Shown: piece by piece, positions 6,460 through 31,616 of the stretch
Numbering within the stretch: position 1 is the stretch's first letter
Layout: each line of letters opens with the position of its first letter
Source of the DNA: Candidatus Hydrothermales bacterium
Lineage (GTDB): Bacteria; Hydrothermota; Hydrothermia; Hydrothermales; JAJRUZ01
Length of the DNA: 36,220 nt
Assembly (NCBI GenBank): GCA_039630575.1
Contig: JBCNUW010000021.1
Coordinates: 1-36,220, forward strand
Direction: 5' to 3'
Made by a program: the position numbers and the translations under genes
Notes under the pieces: model-generated
The model's input: only the letters and a program-made list of their open reading frames with translations
Told to the model about the DNA's origin: nothing
The model's database searches: none

Positions 6460-7755
6460 TTACTTAACATTTTCCCTTAACCACTCAAGAGTCACACTCT
6501 TTGGTCTTTCAATTGGTAAACCAAGTGCTCTGTCCCATATTAACTGAACACATATCCCTATTGCTCTTGAGACTCCGAATAAAACTGTATAATACGGAAA
6601 TTCTTTTATACCATAATGATAAAGAACACAACCTGAATGGGCATCAACATTTGGCCATGGATCCTTAACTTTTTGAAGCTGCTGCAAAATAGGTGGAACA
6701 ACCTCATAAAGCATAGAAACAATCTTAAAGATCTCATCATCAGGCATATACTTTAAAGCAAACTCTCTGAAAGCTACATACCTTGGATCTGTTTTTCTTA
6801 AAACAGCATGACCATATCCTGGAATTACCTGACCAGAATTTAAAGTATCCCAACAGTATTTTTCAAGATCCTCTTTTGTAATTGGTTTATCCTTAAACTT
6901 TTCTTTTAAATTTAAAATCCATCTTAAAACTTCCTGATTGGCAAGACCATGCAGTGGACCTGCAAGACCATTCAAAGCTGCTGAAATTGAATAATAAACA
7001 TCAGAAAGAGCAGAAGAAACTAAGTGTCCTGTATGGGCTGAAACATTTCCTCCTTCATGGTCACAATGAAGAACCATATAAAGCCTCATAAGCTCATAAA
7101 CCTCTGGATTTTCATATCCCATCATATAGGCTAAATTAGCTGCCCAATCAAGATCAGGTTTTGGCTCAATAAACTTTCCCTCCTTATAAAGATATCTGTA
7201 AACATAAGCCGCAACAACTGGGGTCTTCGCTAATAGATCCAAAGTATCCTCATAAAAATATTCCCAATGCTTACCCTTAGGTATACCTTCCCAATAAGCC
7301 TTTGTGAACTTAGACTCTCTCTGCATTGCAAGAATCCCCATTGAAAATAAAGTCATGGGATGAGTATCTGGAGGCATTTTTTTCATCATATCAACTACAT
7401 AAGGTGGAAGATCCATTCTCTTTCTAAATTCATCCTGTATTTCCTTTATATCCTCTTCAGTAGGAAATTCACCGATCAGTAAAAGATAAAAGATTCCCTC
7501 AGGCAACGGTTCATTAAAGCCTTTAGCCTTTGGAAGCTTTTCCCTTACTTCTGGAATTGTATATCCTCTGAATCTTATTCCTTCATTAGGATCAAGAAGT
7601 GAACCTTCCCATACCATACATTTTACATCTCTCATTCCACCATAGGCCTGGTCCACTGTTACTTCCGATATTACTTTATTTCCATATTTTTCCCTAAATT
7701 CTTTTACTTCTTTTACTCTTTTTTCGATTTTTTCTTTTAATTTTTCCTTTAACAT
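6460..7755 (-). CDS. gltA: Citrate (Si)-synthase, eukaryotic/mitochondrial type
   Basis: YGGMR, GIRFRG, DHEGGNVSAH, GLAGPLHGLANQE, PGYGHAVLRKTDPR, WPNVDAHSG and IERPKS motifs; strong SD AGGAGG upstream. Confidence 0.95.
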   Translation of the reverse strand: MLKEKLKEKIEKRVKEVKEFREKYGNKVISEVTVDQAYGGMRDVKCMVWEGSLLDPNEGIRFRGYTIPEVREKLPKAKGFNEPLPEGIFYLLLIGEFPTEEDIKEIQDEFRKRMDLPPYVVDMMKKMPPDTHPMTLFSMGILAMQRESKFTKAYWEGIPKGKHWEYFYEDTLDLLAKTPVVAAYVYRYLYKEGKFIEPKPDLDWAANLAYMMGYENPEVYELMRLYMVLHCDHEGGNVSAHTGHLVSSALSDVYYSISAALNGLAGPLHGLANQEVLRWILNLKEKFKDKPITKEDLEKYCWDTLNSGQVIPGYGHAVLRKTDPRYVAFREFALKYMPDDEIFKIVSMLYEVVPPILQQLQKVKDPWPNVDAHSGCVLYHYGIKEFPYYTVLFGVSRAIGICVQLIWDRALGLPIERPKSVTLEWLRENVK

Positions 7756-12172: not shown

Positions 12173-12700
12173 ATGATAACCTCAACAACAGTTCTCGGAA
12201 TTTTAAAGGACGGAAAGGCGGTTATTGGAGCTGATGGACAAGTTACTTTTGGAGATACTGTTTTAAAGCATAAAGCAAAAAAAGTTACAAAAATATATAA
12301 CGATGAGGTTTTAGTAGGTTTTGCTGGTTCTGTTGCAGATGCCTATACCTTGTTCGAGAATCTTGAGAAGAGTTTAAAAGAGTATAAAGGAGACATTCTT
12401 AGAGCATCAGTAGAGTTAGCAAGAAGGTGGAGAACAGACAAATTTTTAAGAAGACTTGAAGCCCTTCTTGCTGTATTAAACAGAGAAAAAGCACTTATAA
12501 TATCAGGTGGAGGAGAAGTTGTTGAACCTGAATACGGTATAGTTGCAATTGGATCAGGTGCTGCCTACGCAAGAGCAGCTGCCTATGCTCTCCTTAAAAA
12601 TACAAATCTAAGCCCAAGAGAGATAGTTGAAGAGTCCCTAAAGATTGCTGCTGAAATTTGTATATATACAAATGAAAACTTTACAATACTTGAACTATGA
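12173..12700 (+). CDS. hslV: ATP-dependent protease subunit HslV (ClpQ)
   Basis: TTVL after a short MITS propeptide, ADGQVT, GFAGSVADA, WRTDKFLRRLEALL, AIGSG and ICIYTN. Confidence 0.96.
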   Translation: MITSTTVLGILKDGKAVIGADGQVTFGDTVLKHKAKKVTKIYNDEVLVGFAGSVADAYTLFENLEKSLKEYKGDILRASVELARRWRTDKFLRRLEALLAVLNREKALIISGGGEVVEPEYGIVAIGSGAAYARAAAYALLKNTNLSPREIVEESLKIAAEICIYTNENFTILEL

Positions 12701-13338
12701 AAGATAAAGATGAATTAAGTTTTCAGAAATTTCTTGATTTTATAAAAGAAAAAGATTCTGAAAAATTGGAAAAGGAAAAACCACATAAAAAGGAAAAAAG
12801 TAAAAGGAAAGTAAAAGAAATAGAAAGAAAAGATATTGAAAAAATAGAAGAAAGAGAAATTGCCCCACTTTCAGAAGAACTAAAACCCTCTGATTTAATA
12901 GAAGTTGAGGCTGTTCTAGAGGAAGAAATGGAGGAGTATTTAATTTTTAAGGTTAGTGATGAAAGCTATGCTGTTTATACCTATCAAGCAACAGAGGTTG
13001 TAACTGGTTTGGAAATAATTGAGACGCTTGATCTTCCTGATTATGCTTTAGGTATGACTAATTTTAGAAATTTGATGGTTCCTGTCCTCTCTTTTTCAAA
13101 GTTACTTTGTATTGATATGGAGAGAGAACCCTATTCCTTTCTTTTTATTGAAAAGGAAAAAAAAGAGCATTTTTTTATAAGAATAGGGCAAGTAAGAGGT
13201 ATTTTTAAGAAAAGGGACGTAAAACTTCTTGAAGTTCCATTTAACCTTGATAAGGAAATTGTTAGAAAAATTATTTTGATTGATAAAGAGTTGATACCTT
13301 TGATTGATATTAATAAATTAATCGAAAAGAGGAAATAA
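12697..13338 (+). CDS. CheW-like domain protein with a long K/E-rich N-terminal extension
   Basis: The C-terminal ~135 aa (YLIFKV..E.YAV, PDYALGMTNFRNLMVPVL, LIPLIDINKL) resemble CheW. Confidence 0.75.
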   Translation: MKDKDELSFQKFLDFIKEKDSEKLEKEKPHKKEKSKRKVKEIERKDIEKIEEREIAPLSEELKPSDLIEVEAVLEEEMEEYLIFKVSDESYAVYTYQATEVVTGLEIIETLDLPDYALGMTNFRNLMVPVLSFSKLLCIDMEREPYSFLFIEKEKKEHFFIRIGQVRGIFKKRDVKLLEVPFNLDKEIVRKIILIDKELIPLIDINKLIEKRK

Positions 13339-14067: not shown

Positions 14068-15342
14068 ATGAATTTTTTAGAAGCAAATTTATTCCTTGAA
14101 TCTCTTATAAATTACGAGAAAAAAAATATAAAGGGAGAATTTGATTTTGAAAGGTTTTTGAGAGATTTAAATGAATTTGGTAATCCACAATTTTATCTTA
14201 AAAACCCTTGTATAATAGCTGGTACAAAGGGAAAAGGAAGCACTGCCCATCATATTGTTTCTGGTCTTATACAAAAAGGCTATAAAAATGTAGGTCTTTA
14301 TACATCTCCCCATGTTATGGATGTAAGAGAAAGAATAAGAATAGGAAATGACTTTATATCTGAGAAAGATTTTGTATTTTATGTTTCAAAAATAAAAGAA
14401 AAGATTGAAAAAAAGGTTTTTTTAACATACTTTGAGGCTTTAACAGTGATTGCATTTTTATACTTTAAAGATAGAAATACAGATTTTAATATTCTTGAAA
14501 TAGGACTTGGAGGAAGACTTGATGCTGTGAATTCTTGCCCAACTGATTTTTCCATAATTACACCTATAAGTTATGATCATGAACAGATTTTAGGGAACAC
14601 TTTATCAAAAATTGCCTATGAGAAAAGTTTTGTTATAAAGGGTAAAAATACGATAATTTCACCTCAACCACGAGAGGTTCTTGATGTTTTAACTCAAAGG
14701 GCAAAAAAGGTAAAAAGCGAGGTATATCTTATTTCATTAAAAATTCCATTTAAAATAAGGGAAACTTCTATAAATGGAACTTCTTTTAAGATATATTTTG
14801 ATAACAGATGGCATGAAGTTTTTACTAAACTGATTGGAGATTTTCAAGCAATAAACGGAGCTTGTGCATTTATATACCTTTATCTTATGGGAATTAAAAA
14901 CTATGAATTTACTGAATTTAAAATTTTTGGTAGGTTTGAAAAAATTCATGAAAATCCTTTTTTTATTGTTGATGGTGCCCATAATCCCATATCAGTCTCT
15001 GCTGTTGTAAGAAATGTTAAAAACATAATTAAAAAATCACCTGATTTTCTTATTTTTGGATCAAATAAAGATAAAAATATAGGAAAGATGCTTAAAATTT
15101 TAGAAAGACTTGAACCTAAAAATCTTGTATTAACTCAATCACACATACCAAGAAGAGAAGATCCTAAAGTTATCTATGAAATGGCAAAAAATTTAAATTT
15201 TAAAAAAATAGTAACCTTTGAAGATGCCTACAAAGCTTTTAATTTTTGCTTTGAAAATTCAAATTCAAATTCATTCATACTTTTAGTTGGTTCCTTTTAC
15301 CTTGTTGAACTTGCAAAGAAATTTATGAGTTCTTTTATATAA
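14068..15342 (+). CDS. folC: Folylpolyglutamate synthase/dihydrofolate synthase
   Basis: AGTKGKGST, YTSPH...ERI, EIGLGGRLDA, DH..ILG.TL..IA.EK, DGAHN and GSFYL. Confidence 0.93.
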   Translation: MNFLEANLFLESLINYEKKNIKGEFDFERFLRDLNEFGNPQFYLKNPCIIAGTKGKGSTAHHIVSGLIQKGYKNVGLYTSPHVMDVRERIRIGNDFISEKDFVFYVSKIKEKIEKKVFLTYFEALTVIAFLYFKDRNTDFNILEIGLGGRLDAVNSCPTDFSIITPISYDHEQILGNTLSKIAYEKSFVIKGKNTIISPQPREVLDVLTQRAKKVKSEVYLISLKIPFKIRETSINGTSFKIYFDNRWHEVFTKLIGDFQAINGACAFIYLYLMGIKNYEFTEFKIFGRFEKIHENPFFIVDGAHNPISVSAVVRNVKNIIKKSPDFLIFGSNKDKNIGKMLKILERLEPKNLVLTQSHIPRREDPKVIYEMAKNLNFKKIVTFEDAYKAFNFCFENSNSNSFILLVGSFYLVELAKKFMSSFI

Positions 15343-15348
15343 TATAAA

Positions 15349-17922
15349 ATGTTATACAAGAAACTTGGTAAATACGAAATTCTAAAATGGTTAGGAGGAG
15401 GAACCTTTGGAGATGTTTATCTTGTAAAAGACACTTTGATTGATAAACTCTTTGCAATAAAAGTTCCAAGGATAAGAAAGGAAGAATGGGAGATTCTAAA
15501 AAGAGAAGCTAAAGTTTTATCTGAACTTTTGCACGAAAATATTGTTAGATTTTATTCAGTTGACATAATAGATAACAATCTCATAATGACGATGGAATAC
15601 ATAGAAGGAGTCTCACTTAGGAATCTGATAAAGTCTGCTCCTGTTGAGGAGGATTTAGTTTTAAAAATTTTTAAAAAAGTCCTTCTTGCCCTTTCATATG
15701 CTCACACAAAGGGATTTCTTCATAGAGATTTAAAACCTGAAAACATACTTTTAACATCTGATTTTGAACCAAAAATTTCAGATTTTGGACTTGCCCTTAT
15801 TTTTCAGGAAAAAATGAGTGGTAATGTTGTTGGAACACCCCTTTACCTTGCACCTGAAGGTTGGAGAGGGAACTATTCAGAAAGAACTGATATATTTGCT
15901 ATTGGATGTATGATGTATGAATGTTTTGCGGGATTTCCACCCTTTCATGGCAAAACCTTTGAAGAAATAAGAGAAAAAATAAAAAAGGGAAGTTATAAAA
16001 AACTTACCGAAAATGTAAGTGAAAACACAAGAAAAGTTATAGAAAGGGCAATAGATCCTGACCCTGAAAAAAGATTTAAAACAGCAAAGGAAATGTATGA
16101 ATCACTCGAGGAAGGATTGAAAGTAACATACGTGCCACTAATAGATGTAAAAATAGGAGATAAGAGAAAAAATATAATTGATGACTTGACAGATGAGCAA
16201 AAAGATGCTGTAACTACAGAAGAAAGGTTTGTTCTTGTTATTGGTGGTGCAGGAACTGGTAAGACAACTTGTTTGATAAGAAGGGCCTCTTATCTTATTG
16301 AAGTTAAAAATTTTGAACCAGAGGAAATCATAATCACAACTTTTACAGGTAAAGGAATAGATGAAATAAAATCACGATTATTACTTTTTCTTTCAAAAAA
16401 AAATTACTTGTCGTTAAATGTTTCAACTTTGCATAATTTGGGTTTACAGGTTCTTTATACCGGTGGGTCGAGAATTGGATTTAAGATGGAAGAAGCAAAA
16501 GTTATTTCAAGGAGTGAGAGTTTTCAGATAATTAGAAATAATTTCACTGATCTTTCTCAAGTTGAACTCGAAGAAATAATTAAAACTATTTCAATTTCCA
16601 AAATAAATTTACTTGCTCCTGATGACTTATTAAGATCTGATTTTGTTTGGCTAAGAAAATGTGGTTTTATTTATAAAAGATATTCGGAAATTTTAAGGGA
16701 AAATAATTTATTAGATTATGATGATTTAATATTTTATTCTAATTTAATCCTTGATAAGTATGATGATATAAAGGAGAGATTTTCAGAAAATATTAGGTGT
16801 TTACTTATTGATGAATTTCAGGATTTAAGTTATGGTGAGGTATCACTTTTAAAGAAATTGAGAGAAAAAGGTGGGTATTTATTTGCAACAGGTGATCCAG
16901 ACCAAGCTATTTACGGCTTTAAAGGAGCCTCAACGGAATATATAGAAAATTTCGAGAGATACTTTGAAAATCCAAAAATATATTATCTTACAAAATCTTT
17001 TAGAATACCAGAGCATATTTATGATGCTGGTTTAAAGATTCTCTCCAGAATAAAAAGAAGAAAAGAGATTTTCTTTACACCTGCTGAAAAAAAGGGAGAA
17101 AGGATTTTTGTTTTTCACGCTGAAGATGAAAAGGAAGAAGCGAAATTTGTCTCTAAAGAGATAAAGTTATTACTTTCTCAAGGTATTAAGGAGGAGAAAA
17201 TAGCTGTTTTGTCTAGATTTTCTTACTATTTAAAAAACATACAGGAAGTACTTAAAAAAGAAAATATCCCTTTTAATGTTCAAGGTAAATCAAGATTTTA
17301 TATGAAAAGTATAATTAAAGCTTTAAACAGCTATCTTGAATCTGTCCAGTTTGGTAGAAAAAATGCTCTCAAGAAGACTATAAAGTATTTTTTAGGAGAC
17401 AAGAAGATAAGTGATGATATTTTAAAGTTATGGAAAACTCATCAAAAGGAAAAATTTTTAAAAACTCCTTTTGAAATAGTTGACGAGTTTCTTGAAAAAA
17501 TTAATTTTTATGATTTTTTAAAAAATTTGCCTCCAGATCAGGAAAAAGAGGAAAGAGAATCCTTAGATGAATATTTTTTCCTTTTAAAAGAGTATAAAGC
17601 TAAAGAGATAAAAAAATTTTTAGATTCTTTTTCAATTTTAGAGAGTCTTGAAACAGATTCAAGGGAAGGAGGTGTTTTTCTTTCAACAATTCATGGTGCA
17701 AAAGGTCTTGAATTTGATGTAGTATTTATAACTGGTATGGCTGAATCAATTCTCCCAAGTGTTCAAAGCTTATCAAAAAGAAAAGAATTAGATGAAGAAA
17801 GAAGACTTTTTTATGTGGCACTTACAAGAAGTTGTGAAAAAATTTTCATAACAAGACCTAAAGTTAGAGCAGGAAAGAAACTCTTGCCCTCCAGATTTAT
17901 TGAGGAGATGATCATTCTGTGA
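15349..17922 (+). CDS. Fusion of an N-terminal Hanks-type Ser/Thr protein kinase and a C-terminal UvrD/PcrA/Rep-family SF1 helicase
   Basis: Kinase: LGGGTFGDV, AIK, HRDLKPEN, DFG, GTPLYLAPE, DIFAIG. Helicase: LTDEQ, GGAGTGKT, DEFQD, GDPDQAIYGFKGA, STIHGAKGLEF, EERRLFYVALTR. Single uninterrupted ORF. Confidence 0.92.
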   Translation: MLYKKLGKYEILKWLGGGTFGDVYLVKDTLIDKLFAIKVPRIRKEEWEILKREAKVLSELLHENIVRFYSVDIIDNNLIMTMEYIEGVSLRNLIKSAPVEEDLVLKIFKKVLLALSYAHTKGFLHRDLKPENILLTSDFEPKISDFGLALIFQEKMSGNVVGTPLYLAPEGWRGNYSERTDIFAIGCMMYECFAGFPPFHGKTFEEIREKIKKGSYKKLTENVSENTRKVIERAIDPDPEKRFKTAKEMYESLEEGLKVTYVPLIDVKIGDKRKNIIDDLTDEQKDAVTTEERFVLVIGGAGTGKTTCLIRRASYLIEVKNFEPEEIIITTFTGKGIDEIKSRLLLFLSKKNYLSLNVSTLHNLGLQVLYTGGSRIGFKMEEAKVISRSESFQIIRNNFTDLSQVELEEIIKTISISKINLLAPDDLLRSDFVWLRKCGFIYKRYSEILRENNLLDYDDLIFYSNLILDKYDDIKERFSENIRCLLIDEFQDLSYGEVSLLKKLREKGGYLFATGDPDQAIYGFKGASTEYIENFERYFENPKIYYLTKSFRIPEHIYDAGLKILSRIKRRKEIFFTPAEKKGERIFVFHAEDEKEEAKFVSKEIKLLLSQGIKEEKIAVLSRFSYYLKNIQEVLKKENIPFNVQGKSRFYMKSIIKALNSYLESVQFGRKNALKKTIKYFLGDKKISDDILKLWKTHQKEKFLKTPFEIVDEFLEKINFYDFLKNLPPDQEKEERESLDEYFFLLKEYKAKEIKKFLDSFSILESLETDSREGGVFLSTIHGAKGLEFDVVFITGMAESILPSVQSLSKRKELDEERRLFYVALTRSCEKIFITRPKVRAGKKLLPSRFIEEMIIL

Positions 17923-29252: not shown

Positions 29253-30179
29253 ATGTTTGAAGGTAGTTTTATATTCTTTGGCACAGGTGATTTTGCTGCA
29301 AAGGTATTTATATCGATGTTAAAAAATGGTTTGAAACCAGATGCTGTTGTTACAGCTCCTGATAAACCTCAAGGTAGAGGATTGAAGATTACTCCTTCTC
29401 CTGTTAAAGAGCTTTCTTTACAGCATGGTATAAGAAGGGATAGAATTTTCCAGCCCTATGATGTTAATCATCCTGCAAGTGTAAGTGAATTAAAAAAGCT
29501 TGAGCCTGAATTAATCCTTTTGACAGATTATGGTCAGATACTTGGTAAAGAACTTTTAAATTTACCAAAGAATGGGGCTATAAATCTTCATCCTTCTCTT
29601 TTACCAAAGTATAGGGGTGCTGCACCTCTGGAAAGGGCGATTATGAATGGAGAAGAGGAAACAGGTTTTACTTTTTTTATAATGGATGAAAAGATTGATA
29701 CTGGAAAAATAATCTATCAAGAAAAGATTAAGATAGGGGATAAGACAAAGGGGGAGATTGAGTCTATAATTTCTGAGAGATCAATTAGTATTTTTTCTGA
29801 GATTTATGATAAGTATAAAAGAGGAGAAATAAAACCCAAACCGCAGCGTGGGGAGTCATCTTATGCTCACAAGTTAGATGAAGATGAATTATGGATTGAC
29901 TGGAAAAAGGATGCCTTTTTTGTGATGAGGCATATTCATGCTCTTTCACCAACACCTGGTGCGAGGACTCATTTTGATGGCAAATATATAAAGATATATA
30001 AAGTTCAAGAGAATAGGGATTATTCAGGTCCGATAGGTAAGATAATAATTGAAGGTTCAAGGTTATTTGTTATGTGTGGTGAGGGTGCTGTAGAAGTTTT
30101 AGAACTTCAATCAGCTGGAAAGAGGAAAATGACGGCTTCAGAGTATGTTCAAGGTAACCACCCTTTTTGGGCAGAATGA
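29253..30179 (+). CDS. fmt: Methionyl-tRNA formyltransferase
   Basis: FFGT..FA, VVT.PDKP.GRG, NLHPSLLPKYRGAAP and D.G; adjacent to def. Confidence 0.96.
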   Translation: MFEGSFIFFGTGDFAAKVFISMLKNGLKPDAVVTAPDKPQGRGLKITPSPVKELSLQHGIRRDRIFQPYDVNHPASVSELKKLEPELILLTDYGQILGKELLNLPKNGAINLHPSLLPKYRGAAPLERAIMNGEEETGFTFFIMDEKIDTGKIIYQEKIKIGDKTKGEIESIISERSISIFSEIYDKYKRGEIKPKPQRGESSYAHKLDEDELWIDWKKDAFFVMRHIHALSPTPGARTHFDGKYIKIYKVQENRDYSGPIGKIIIEGSRLFVMCGEGAVEVLELQSAGKRKMTASEYVQGNHPFWAE

Positions 30180-30427
30180 AAATACTTGAGGAATTTGGAA
30201 GGTTATCTATCATTTTAGGGGTATTTTTAGTTTTAATTGGTCTTTTTTTCTATTTTTTCTCAAAGGTTGAGATTCAAAGGAGTTTTCTGAAATTGCCGCG
30301 TATGCCTTTTGATATATTAATAGAAAAGGAAAATTTCAAATTTTATTTTCCCTTAGGAACTTCAATAATTATTTCAATTATTTTAACGATAATTTTAAAT
30401 GTTTTCTTTAAGTTCTTGAAAAAATAA
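30176..30427 (+). CDS. DUF2905-like small membrane protein
   Basis: Two hydrophobic helices flanking P.DI.IE.ENFKFYFPL.TSI; ATGA overlap with the fmt stop. Confidence 0.8.
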   Translation: MKILEEFGRLSIILGVFLVLIGLFFYFFSKVEIQRSFLKLPRMPFDILIEKENFKFYFPLGTSIIISIILTIILNVFFKFLKK

Positions 30428-30445
30428 AAATATAAGATGTATAAT
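30416..30445 (+). promoter_or_regulatory. Putative promoter directly upstream of rpsE (near-leaderless)
   Basis: TTGAAA-18 nt-TATAAT, then 8 nt to the ATG; no SD. Confidence 0.55.
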
Positions 30446-30453
30446 AAAAAGCT

Positions 30454-30957
30454 ATGGAAGAGGGAAAAACCTTTATAGAGAATATTATATCTTTGAGTCG
30501 TGTTGTTAAGGTTGTAACTGGTGGAAGAAGATTTAAGATTTCTGCTTGGGTTGCTGTTGGTGATGGAGAGGGAAAAGTAGGGATAGGACATGGTAAGGCG
30601 GCAGAAACTCCTGATGCTATTGCAAAAGCCTTAAAAAGGGCGAGAAAGAATATGATAAATGTTCCCATTATAAATGGAACGATACCACATCCAGTTCTTG
30701 GAAAAGTTGGTGCCTCTAAAATTCTTTTAAAACCGGCGGGTCCTGGTACAGGTTTAATTGCTTGTCACACTGTCAGAGCAATTCTGGAGGCAGCTGGTTA
30801 CAGAAATGTTCTAACAAAATCCTTAGGTTCAACTACACCTTGTAATCTTGCTCAAGCTACAATGGATGCCTTATCAAAACTTAAGGATCCGAGACTATTT
30901 TCAAGGAGAAGAGGGTTACCTCTTTTAAGGGTTACAAGAAAATTTATGATTTCATAG
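30454..30957 (+). CDS. rpsE: 30S ribosomal protein S5
   Basis: RV.KVV.GGRRF, VGDG.GKVG.G.GKA, TIPH and LKPAGPGTG.IA. Confidence 0.96.
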   Translation: MEEGKTFIENIISLSRVVKVVTGGRRFKISAWVAVGDGEGKVGIGHGKAAETPDAIAKALKRARKNMINVPIINGTIPHPVLGKVGASKILLKPAGPGTGLIACHTVRAILEAAGYRNVLTKSLGSTTPCNLAQATMDALSKLKDPRLFSRRRGLPLLRVTRKFMIS

Positions 30958-30958
30958 T

Positions 30959-31168
30959 ATGGAAGAAAGGTATTTAAGGATAAAGCAAATCAAGTCTAAA
31001 ATTGGGGCAAACTGGAGAGCCAAGAGAACTCTTGAGGCTCTTGGTCTTAAAAAAATAGGTCAGGTTGTAATAAAGAGGGATACTCCTCAGATAAGAGGTA
31101 TGATAGACAAAATAAGATATCTTATTGAAGTTGAAGAGATTTTTGAAAAAGATAAAGGAGGGTTTTAA
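30959..31168 (+). CDS. rpmD: 50S ribosomal protein L30
   Basis: [19 protein letters not shown] and TPQIRGMI; located between rpsE and rplO. Confidence 0.95.
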
Positions 31169-31169
31169 T

Positions 31170-31616
31170 ATGCTTGATTTAAGTAAACTAAGGCCTGCAA
31201 GGGGAGCTAAAAAGAAGCCAAAGAGAGTTGGAAGAGGTATTGGTTCAGGTCATGGAAAGACATCTGGTAGGGGGCATAAGGGTGCAGGATCAAGATCGGG
31301 AAAGGAAAAGGGTCCTGAATTTGAAGGTGGACAGACTCCATTATACAGGAGGTTGCCGAAAAAGGGATTTGTAAATCCTTTTGGTGAGAAATATGAGGTT
31401 ATAAATATAAAAAATTTAGTAGAGAAGTTTAAAGAAGGAGAGGAGGCTACATACGAGGAAATGAAAAATAGAAGAGTTTTAAGGAGGAATTTTAAGGTTA
31501 AGCTTCTTTCAGACGGAGAGATAAATTTTCCTTTGAAAGTTTATGTTCACAAGGCTTCTAAGAAGGCAATTCAAAAAATTAAAAATGTAGGTGGTGAGGT
31601 AATATTTATAAAGTAA
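31170..31616 (+). CDS. rplO: 50S ribosomal protein L15
   Basis: [21 protein letters not shown] and [23 protein letters not shown] before ATG 31170. Confidence 0.96.

Follow-up and report, generated by a model that had tools for sequence, protein, structure and literature searches.

A Hanks-type kinase fused to a PcrA/UvrD-like motor in Hydrothermota, with a cytoplasmic ARPP-1 protein as its likely partner

A 36,220-nucleotide stretch of DNA from a Candidatus Hydrothermales bacterium (assembly GCA_039630575.1, contig JBCNUW010000021.1, positions 1 to 36,220 of the forward strand; hereafter the window) encodes, at 15349..17922 on the plus strand, a protein in which a Hanks-type Ser/Thr kinase is joined to a superfamily 1A (SF1A) motor of the PcrA/UvrD type. 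This fusion is a real, uncharacterized variant of DNA-linked kinase signaling, and its conserved partner is likely to be a cytoplasmic ARPP-1 protein rather than the product of the neighboring glycosyltransferase family 2 (GT2) gene. We propose, with a probability of roughly 0.45, that the fusion is a DNA-gated kinase, the motor of which would load on single-stranded DNA (ssDNA) and switch on the kinase, which would in turn act on ARPP-1. Together, the two proteins are likely to make up a signaling device triggered by DNA; a mobile anti-phage system is the less favored reading. New in this analysis are the unlinked state of the two genes, a two-clade split of ARPP-1 that sharpens their co-occurrence, and their predicted binding.

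The gene is a single open reading frame (ORF) of 857 amino acids (aa) without an internal stop. Pfam searches recover Pkinase at aa 9-249 (183 bits; 15373..16095, plus strand), UvrD-helicase at aa 280-539, and UvrD_C extending up to aa 835, the motor as a whole occupying aa 280-857 (16186..17919, plus strand). Between the two lies a linker at about aa 254-279 (16108..16185, plus strand), which is 27 aa long in this fusion and 21-40 aa across 70 aligned relatives. The AlphaFold model (predicted local distance difference test [pLDDT] 86; predicted template modeling score [pTM] 0.57) comprises two well-folded units connected by this linker, which drops below a pLDDT of 50 at aa 257-270 and is probably flexible; the top Foldseek matches of the model are PcrA (1pjr) and UvrD (4c2t and 2is6). 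The kinase carries neither PASTA domains nor a transmembrane (TM) segment: the best 19-residue hydropathy is 1.25, versus 2.62 in the membrane kinase of the same genome, and none of the 70 relatives reaches 2.0 or shows a clear TM segment. An assembly chimera is ruled out because contigs of three sequencing runs, all from one hot-spring study and one possibly the source of this DNA, cross 16100-16200 without a joint, and because both domains are carried by 93 other database proteins (29-88% identity) among the best 120 of 4466 matches; those named by taxon are from WOR-3, Hydrothermota, or Hydrothermales, along with one labeled simply "bacterium," which points to a WOR-3 bacterium as the most probable host. 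An initial annotation made from the sequence alone had described a kinase and a UvrD/PcrA helicase in one ORF, with a linker of about 25 aa and no TM segment, and had marked 16100-16200 for read mapping; the ORF, the Pfam domains, the homologues, and the contigs uphold this picture throughout.

Both halves retain their active-site motifs. In the alignment of the 70 relatives, the invariant kinase residues are K38, E53, H125-R126-D127, K129, N132, D145, G147, T163, and E170, and all the Hanks kinase features (Gly loop, catalytic Lys, helix-C Glu, HRD, DFG, and APE) are present; in an alignment of the kinase, S159 is kept at 90% or more. The motor displays the fold and motifs Q, I, Ia, II, III, IV, V, and VI of SF1A, with G304-K305-T306 (Walker A), D488, D492, and the motif IV, IVa, and VI arginines R552, R623, R819, and R827 invariant, and with Q284, E489, and Q519 kept in 67-69 of the 70. 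The kinase and helicase motifs named in the initial annotation are all found in the protein, their active-site residues being near-invariant in the family. The small motif deviations that it had remarked on are present too, but most are family traits (F551 in 70/70, S550 in 58/70, F524 in 21/70, and G334 in 19/70), and only K525 is rare, being found in 4/70 relatives, with R at that position in 64.

The closest sequence and fold matches of the motor are PcrA, UvrD, and Rep (1pjr, 4c2t, 2is6, 1uaa, and 9dci), with which it shares motifs Q and I-VI and the 1A/1B/2A/2B fold, and from which it differs in its N-terminal kinase, its short 2B subdomain without the GIG element, and the lack of a Tudor tail. 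By cut-off, 2B GIG element, and Tudor tail it is no PcrA/UvrD orthologue: it fails the NCBIfam equivalog cut-offs (TIGR01073, 329.6 versus 911.2; TIGR01075, 248.7 versus 1144.45), and in a tree the fusion motors form one clade, separate from WOR-3 PcrA. As for a separate uvrD/pcrA, which the initial annotation had raised, the source genome has a PcrA with the RGIG element and a Tudor-like tail on another contig (C16:13362-15407), and its one other kinase is of the membrane type; hence, the fusion is an extra enzyme beside the genome's own PcrA. In the AlphaFold model the 2B subdomain (about aa 654-769; 17308..17655, plus strand) is shortened rather than missing, the motif IVb-to-V stretch that holds it spanning 131 aa here and 117-170 aa in the family, versus 162-176 aa in 17 of the 18 WOR-3 PcrAs measured. 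The RGIG/GIG element is found in 0/70 and 0/40 fusions, whereas its Gly column is filled in 25/25 unfused helicases. The protein stops 7 residues after PSRF, with comparably short tails in the family, so that both the shortened 2B and the missing PcrA/UvrD Tudor-like tail called earlier are borne out. Loss of this tail, we presume, speaks against the RNA-polymerase role of PcrA for the fusion motor. In PMC11912403, contact between 2B/GIG and DNA marks the inhibited helicase monomer, and the absence of the GIG element in the fusions would imply that this contact is lost; further, in UvrD1, deletion of 2B is described as unmasking a harmful helicase (PMC13646824).

The distribution and inheritance of the fusion resemble those of a core gene. 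A fusion-specific kinase profile leaves a clear gap to other kinases (E values of 2.7e-86 versus 1.8e-73), while kinase-only patterns in a contig scan returned generic kinases. By this profile and three contig-cut cases (114 + 3), the fusion is present in 117 of 272 genomes of the phylum, largely by whole families, and no family in the phylum keeps these halves as separate genes. It is mostly vertically inherited: over 28 genomes its distances correlate with those of rpoB at a rho of 0.80, and the two trees have 11 of 15 strong splits in common. The kinase tree is 1.33x, and the motor tree 2.04x, as long as that of rpoB. It is also under purifying selection of a housekeeping level, the ratio of nonsynonymous to synonymous substitution rates against a same-genus relative being 0.063 (0.042 for the kinase domain), compared to 0.064 for rpsB and 0.059 for pyrH. 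Among the matched records, none of the 233 from phages and none of the 3692 from plasmids covers 80% of the protein. When 116 neighbor proteins (one per cluster, within three genes of the fusion) were compared with PADLOC, only 7 matched at 1e-10, four of them strongly and each at a different locus, and neither GajA nor MkoB was among them. These few defense neighbors, together with the conserved active sites, the rpoB-like tree, and the substitution ratios, support the core role that had initially been favored over a defense island. The frame is interrupted in four genomes (G043, G046, G111, and G177), for which a real lesion and an assembly error are alike possible; in one of these (locus L208, G046:C62) the reading frame shifts once, close to residue 585, and the two halves are conserved apart from that.

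Label-free clustering of 40 fusion loci yielded one recurring neighbor, found in 21/24 loci outside the window's class and 0/16 inside it, and this neighbor is ARPP-1 (Pfam code PF20208). The source genome too encodes a cytoplasmic ARPP-1, on another contig (C1:34546-35457), a partner that the initial annotation had missed. A tree of 61 ARPP-1 proteins, built by a quick tree search (one of the 40 fetched ARPP loci, lacking an ORF, being left out) splits with 100% support into two clades. The short clade (43 rows) comprises proteins of about 300 aa without a hydrophobic N-terminal extension, including both linked and unlinked copies, all from fusion-positive genomes, plus one contig-end case. 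The longer clade (18 rows) has N-termini that by eye are signal-peptide-like and is made up of copies from fusion-free genomes and second paralogues. With a profile of the short clade (gap of 2.5e-77 versus 3.4e-61; one contig-cut copy added), the tally over the 272 genomes is 112 with both genes, 5 with the fusion only, 1 with ARPP-1 only, and 154 with neither. The ARPP-1-only genome has a gene that ends at a contig end, and the 5 fusion-only genomes are fragmented, two of them holding weak or partial ARPP-1 matches. The two genes are adjacent in 67/73 genomes outside the window's class and 0/39 inside it, and in 65 of the 67 linked pairs ARPP-1 lies upstream, often overlapping the start of the fusion. 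Thus, the fusion and one ARPP-1 subfamily are jointly present or absent, whether adjacent or not. On an rpoB tree of 47 genomes chosen to span families, there are 9 presence changes, and 9 independent pairs agree (p 0.004-0.008). As two of the losses of both genes, in families f7/f8 and f9, fall inside the class where they are unlinked, joint removal of a single operon does not account for every case.

Some ARPP-1 genes have additional neighbors of their own. In the source genome ARPP-1 lies just upstream of a gene that reads as diadenylate-cyclase-like (C1:34546-36214, L189), and in families f1 and f2 it precedes or overlaps such a membrane diadenylate-cyclase-like gene at 4/4 loci (L189 and L119-L121), an arrangement not seen in the other families. 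In families f26 and f27, a 140-170-aa protein without a Pfam match is encoded directly upstream of ARPP-1, behind a TonB-dependent receptor gene (L103-L105, L108, and L110-L112).

The AlphaFold model of ARPP-1 is of high confidence (pLDDT 94.8), with no sequence match in the PDB and no Foldseek match at an E value of 0.001 or better; its best VIA match has a Z score of 4.4 over 69 residues at a root-mean-square deviation of 5.2. The invariant Cys/Gln/Arg set of the family is kept in the signal-peptide-like clade too, which has no such kinase. S171, by contrast, is invariant in the cytoplasmic clade only; with S167 and T169 it is a candidate phosphorylation site. Longer ARPP-1 fusions gave one weak match among 8000 candidates, and a cluster in which ARPP is fused to HIRAN has 228 members. 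HIRAN and WYL are also among the ARPP neighbors reported in PMC9503650. Partners of this kind suggest a link to DNA ends and to the signaling of damage, although that paper assigns ARPP chiefly to predicted anti-ADP-ribosylation systems; an action of ARPP-1 on sugar moieties has been proposed by others. Prediction of a complex between the kinase domain and ARPP-1 scored 0.60 versus 0.01 for the best control, with at least 88% of contacts common to the runs and a partner pLDDT of at least 85. The mark used for this score is reached by 116/157 solved and 2/215 mismatched pairs, of which 18 solved pairs and both mismatches lie at or below 0.60. The prediction weakly suggests that the kinase domain binds ARPP-1, and recall of a similar complex by the predictor is unlikely, since no solved relative of ARPP-1 was found.

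The features examined set the fusion apart from PcrA orthologues, membrane kinases, GajB, and MkoA. The nearest characterized kinase-helicase polypeptide is MkoA of Mokosh type I, which likewise places a Ser/Thr kinase and an SF1 helicase in one chain but differs in having an Upf1-like (COG1112) helicase and in working with the phospholipase D (PLD) nuclease MkoB (10.1101/2022.05.11.491447). The PADLOC MkoA profile covers only the kinase of the fusion (aa 6-255), AAA_12 scores 24 bits, under its cut-off, and no MkoB-like PLD nuclease is found among the window genes or the 116 neighbor proteins. The earlier statement that no characterized protein is known with this exact architecture therefore stands. 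Like GajB of Gabija, the fusion has a UvrD-like motor (PADLOC matches to 1e-73), but it differs in its fused kinase, its core-like inheritance, and the absence of a GajA neighbor. The membrane kinases Stk1, PknB, and YabT have a TM helix that the fusion lacks (NF033483, 196 versus 450). As a functional model, YabT of Bacillus subtilis offers the closest parallel: PMC6333020 describes it as a Hanks kinase that DNA activates, that has no extracellular sensor, and that acts on genome-maintenance proteins. The fusion too is a Hanks kinase without such a sensor, and DNA may activate it by analogy; YabT, however, is membrane-anchored and binds DNA by a basic stretch, whereas the fusion is soluble and has an ATP-driven motor. 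The ARPP contexts of PMC9503650 share PF20208 with its invariant Cys and Gln, with ARG, HIRAN, WYL, and a deacetylase as partners; "UvrD" occurs 0 times in its main text. In searches of open-access PubMed Central and bioRxiv, neither the fusion nor its pairing with ARPP-1 was seen to be described.

A second kinase-UvrD family with the same domain order, itself uncharacterized, makes up all 120 listed matches (P0105 and P0122-P0240) of a query from Blastocatellia (soil Acidobacteria). These proteins are of about 965 aa, with the motifs intact in 119-120 of the 120 matches listed; the fusion is present in 2 of 5 genomes checked (L258 and L259), both of which have ARPP-1 on other contigs. Its kinase nests among an acidobacterial expansion, and a single clade with the WOR-3 kinases is rejected (approximately unbiased test, p 0.017). 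The motor trees do not reject a common origin, placing the two sets of fusions on one side of a branch (support of 91 and 94). We read this as a probable separate capture of the kinase, with a motor ancestry that may be shared.

SF1A helicases are known for ATP-driven 3'-5' translocation on ssDNA, and the motor of the fusion would be expected to load on ssDNA and track along it in the same manner. By analogy to YabT, several copies might gather on one ssDNA stretch, such as a gap or a stalled fork, where their kinases could trans-activate each other through autophosphorylation of the activation loop, this being an RD kinase in which T163 is invariant and S159 conserved. The active kinase would then bind ARPP-1 and probably phosphorylate it, as a substrate or a regulator, and the likely job of the module would be the signaling of chromosomal DNA damage or fork problems. 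Several points weigh against this proposal. We infer all of its decisive elements, namely, that the kinase depends on DNA, which half controls the other, and what is phosphorylated, and the model predicts no fixed packing of kinase against motor (pTM 0.57). The pass in complex prediction is weak, and most such passes are false unless the pairing was already likely before the run. The profiles behind the co-occurrence tally drew their members from the very genomes that were counted. Tree mirroring adds nothing, because the ARPP-1 distances track those of rpoB (rho 0.71) almost as well as those of the fusion (0.74). Of the 15 strong fusion splits, 4 are missing from the rpoB tree. The module is dispensable, given its absence from 154/272 genomes. 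Finally, ARPP was first described, in the main text of PMC9503650, in predicted systems countering viral ADP-ribosylation. A more specific version of the proposal, which we regard as doubtful, is that an ssDNA-tracking motor carries its own kinase to phosphorylate a Cys-dependent ARPP-1 that acts on damaged or modified DNA ends, forming a checkpoint ancestral to the phylum, with the kinase-UvrD join invented again in soil Acidobacteria.

Control could run in reverse: a motor that lacks part of its autoinhibitory 2B would be a constitutively active helicase, switched on and off by the kinase tethered to it, which ARPP-1 would tune. The absence of the GIG element from all fusions, the inhibitory contact and the UvrD1 phenotype cited above, and the family-specific T281, T307, and T514 beside the motor motifs are consistent with this; nevertheless, 2B is shortened and not absent, housekeeping repair is already served by the separate PcrA and UvrA, and reverse control by itself leaves the requirement for ARPP-1 unexplained, making it an unlikely account. 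We give no greater credence to an anti-phage system that has become fixed in the chromosome and works as Mokosh I or Hachiman does. Its motor would sense DNA that is foreign or damaged, upon which the kinase and ARPP-1 would trigger arrest or reverse a viral modification. Here one can point to domain-level matches of both halves to defense profiles (GajB, Mad6, PD-T4-6, and the kinase part of MkoA), to the kinase-helicase architecture of MkoA itself, to the occurrence of ARPP in predicted conflict systems, and to at least 9 gains or losses on the rpoB tree. Against these stand the presence by whole families, the mostly vertical inheritance and slow evolution, the scattered PADLOC matches of the neighbors (ARPP-1 itself matching none), the lack of MkoB or GajA beside the gene, the lack of the whole protein on phages or plasmids, and the co-inheritance with ARPP-1 even once unlinked; a defense role is hence the less likely one.

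It is still less probable that ARPP-1 is a brake, an inhibitor or eraser restraining a potentially toxic kinase-motor in the manner of an antitoxin. Its position ahead of the fusion, the fragmented state of the few fusion-only genomes, and the weak predicted binding would be in keeping with such a function, as would the phosphatase PF13672, which is unmatched in the source genome and missing from most fusion-positive families. However, the source genome has a SpoIIE-type phosphatase, family f6 holds both the fusion and a PrpC-like gene, the Cys/Gln/Arg set is invariant where no such kinase exists, and cytoplasmic ARPP-1 is likewise not kept without the fusion. Least credible of all, to a degree that we consider it very improbable, is a passive join between two enzymes that act independently: the flexible linker, the unpredicted packing between domains, and the four interrupted frames would agree with it, but the join persists across the phylum and its linker varies little in length, no family has parted the halves, and the same architecture arose separately in Blastocatellia.

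In bacteria, few kinases are known that signal DNA damage by phosphorylation, YabT being an example, and none is known to be driven by a DNA motor of its own. The join, whose kinase is nearly as slow to evolve as RpoB, appears ancestral to the phylum, and it ties the widespread ARPP-1 domain, for which there is no solved structure, to one specific partner. It thereby opens the questions of whether a kinase can be gated by a translocase and of what ARPP does, and its naturally GIG-less 2B bears on 2B restraint of UvrD-family motors.

In the window, the fusion gene follows hslV, uppP, and folC and precedes the GT2 gene, pyrH, tsf, and ribosomal genes, and its guanine-plus-cytosine content equals the local value of 28-29%. 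A TATAAT hexamer (15338..15343, plus strand), noted in the initial annotation and confirmed here, sits 5 nucleotides (nt) ahead of the start codon and overlaps the folC stop; a search for a -35/-10 pair upstream of the gene returned none. The hexamer fits a leaderless start as a candidate -10 element, which is plausible because TATAAT peaks 5-8 nt before the ATG genome-wide (69/911 long ATG ORFs), a peak that also suggests many leaderless transcripts in this genome. Similar hexamers, again 5-8 nt upstream, precede several relatives without an upstream ARPP-1, whereas many linked relatives instead overlap the ARPP-1 stop by 4-8 nt, suggesting that unlinked fusion genes acquired a leaderless promoter. 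The coupling to the GT2 gene that had been pointed out earlier is real as a 4-nt overlap but incidental: the junction occurs in only 2 of the 40 loci, both of the same genus, and GT2 is ruled out as a functional partner.

Elsewhere in the source genome, an HTH-S24 (helix-turn-helix) repressor gene is divergent from umuD- and umuC-like genes (C13:3808-6131), with no lexA over the cut-off in the genome. Families f6-f8 have an operon of a PrpC-like phosphatase and a membrane kinase following a gene of about 129 aa (L240-L242 and L251), f7 and f8 being without the fusion. In the window itself, hslV is followed by a lone CheW-like gene, with hslU not adjacent (12173-13338, plus strand), and the citrate synthase at 6460-7755 (minus strand) scores over the eukaryotic-type TIGR01793 cut-off (655 versus 620 bits). 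At 30167-31616 (plus strand), S5, L15, secY, adk, and map come directly after def, fmt, and a DUF2905 gene, the upstream spc genes being missing, which amounts to a split spc operon.

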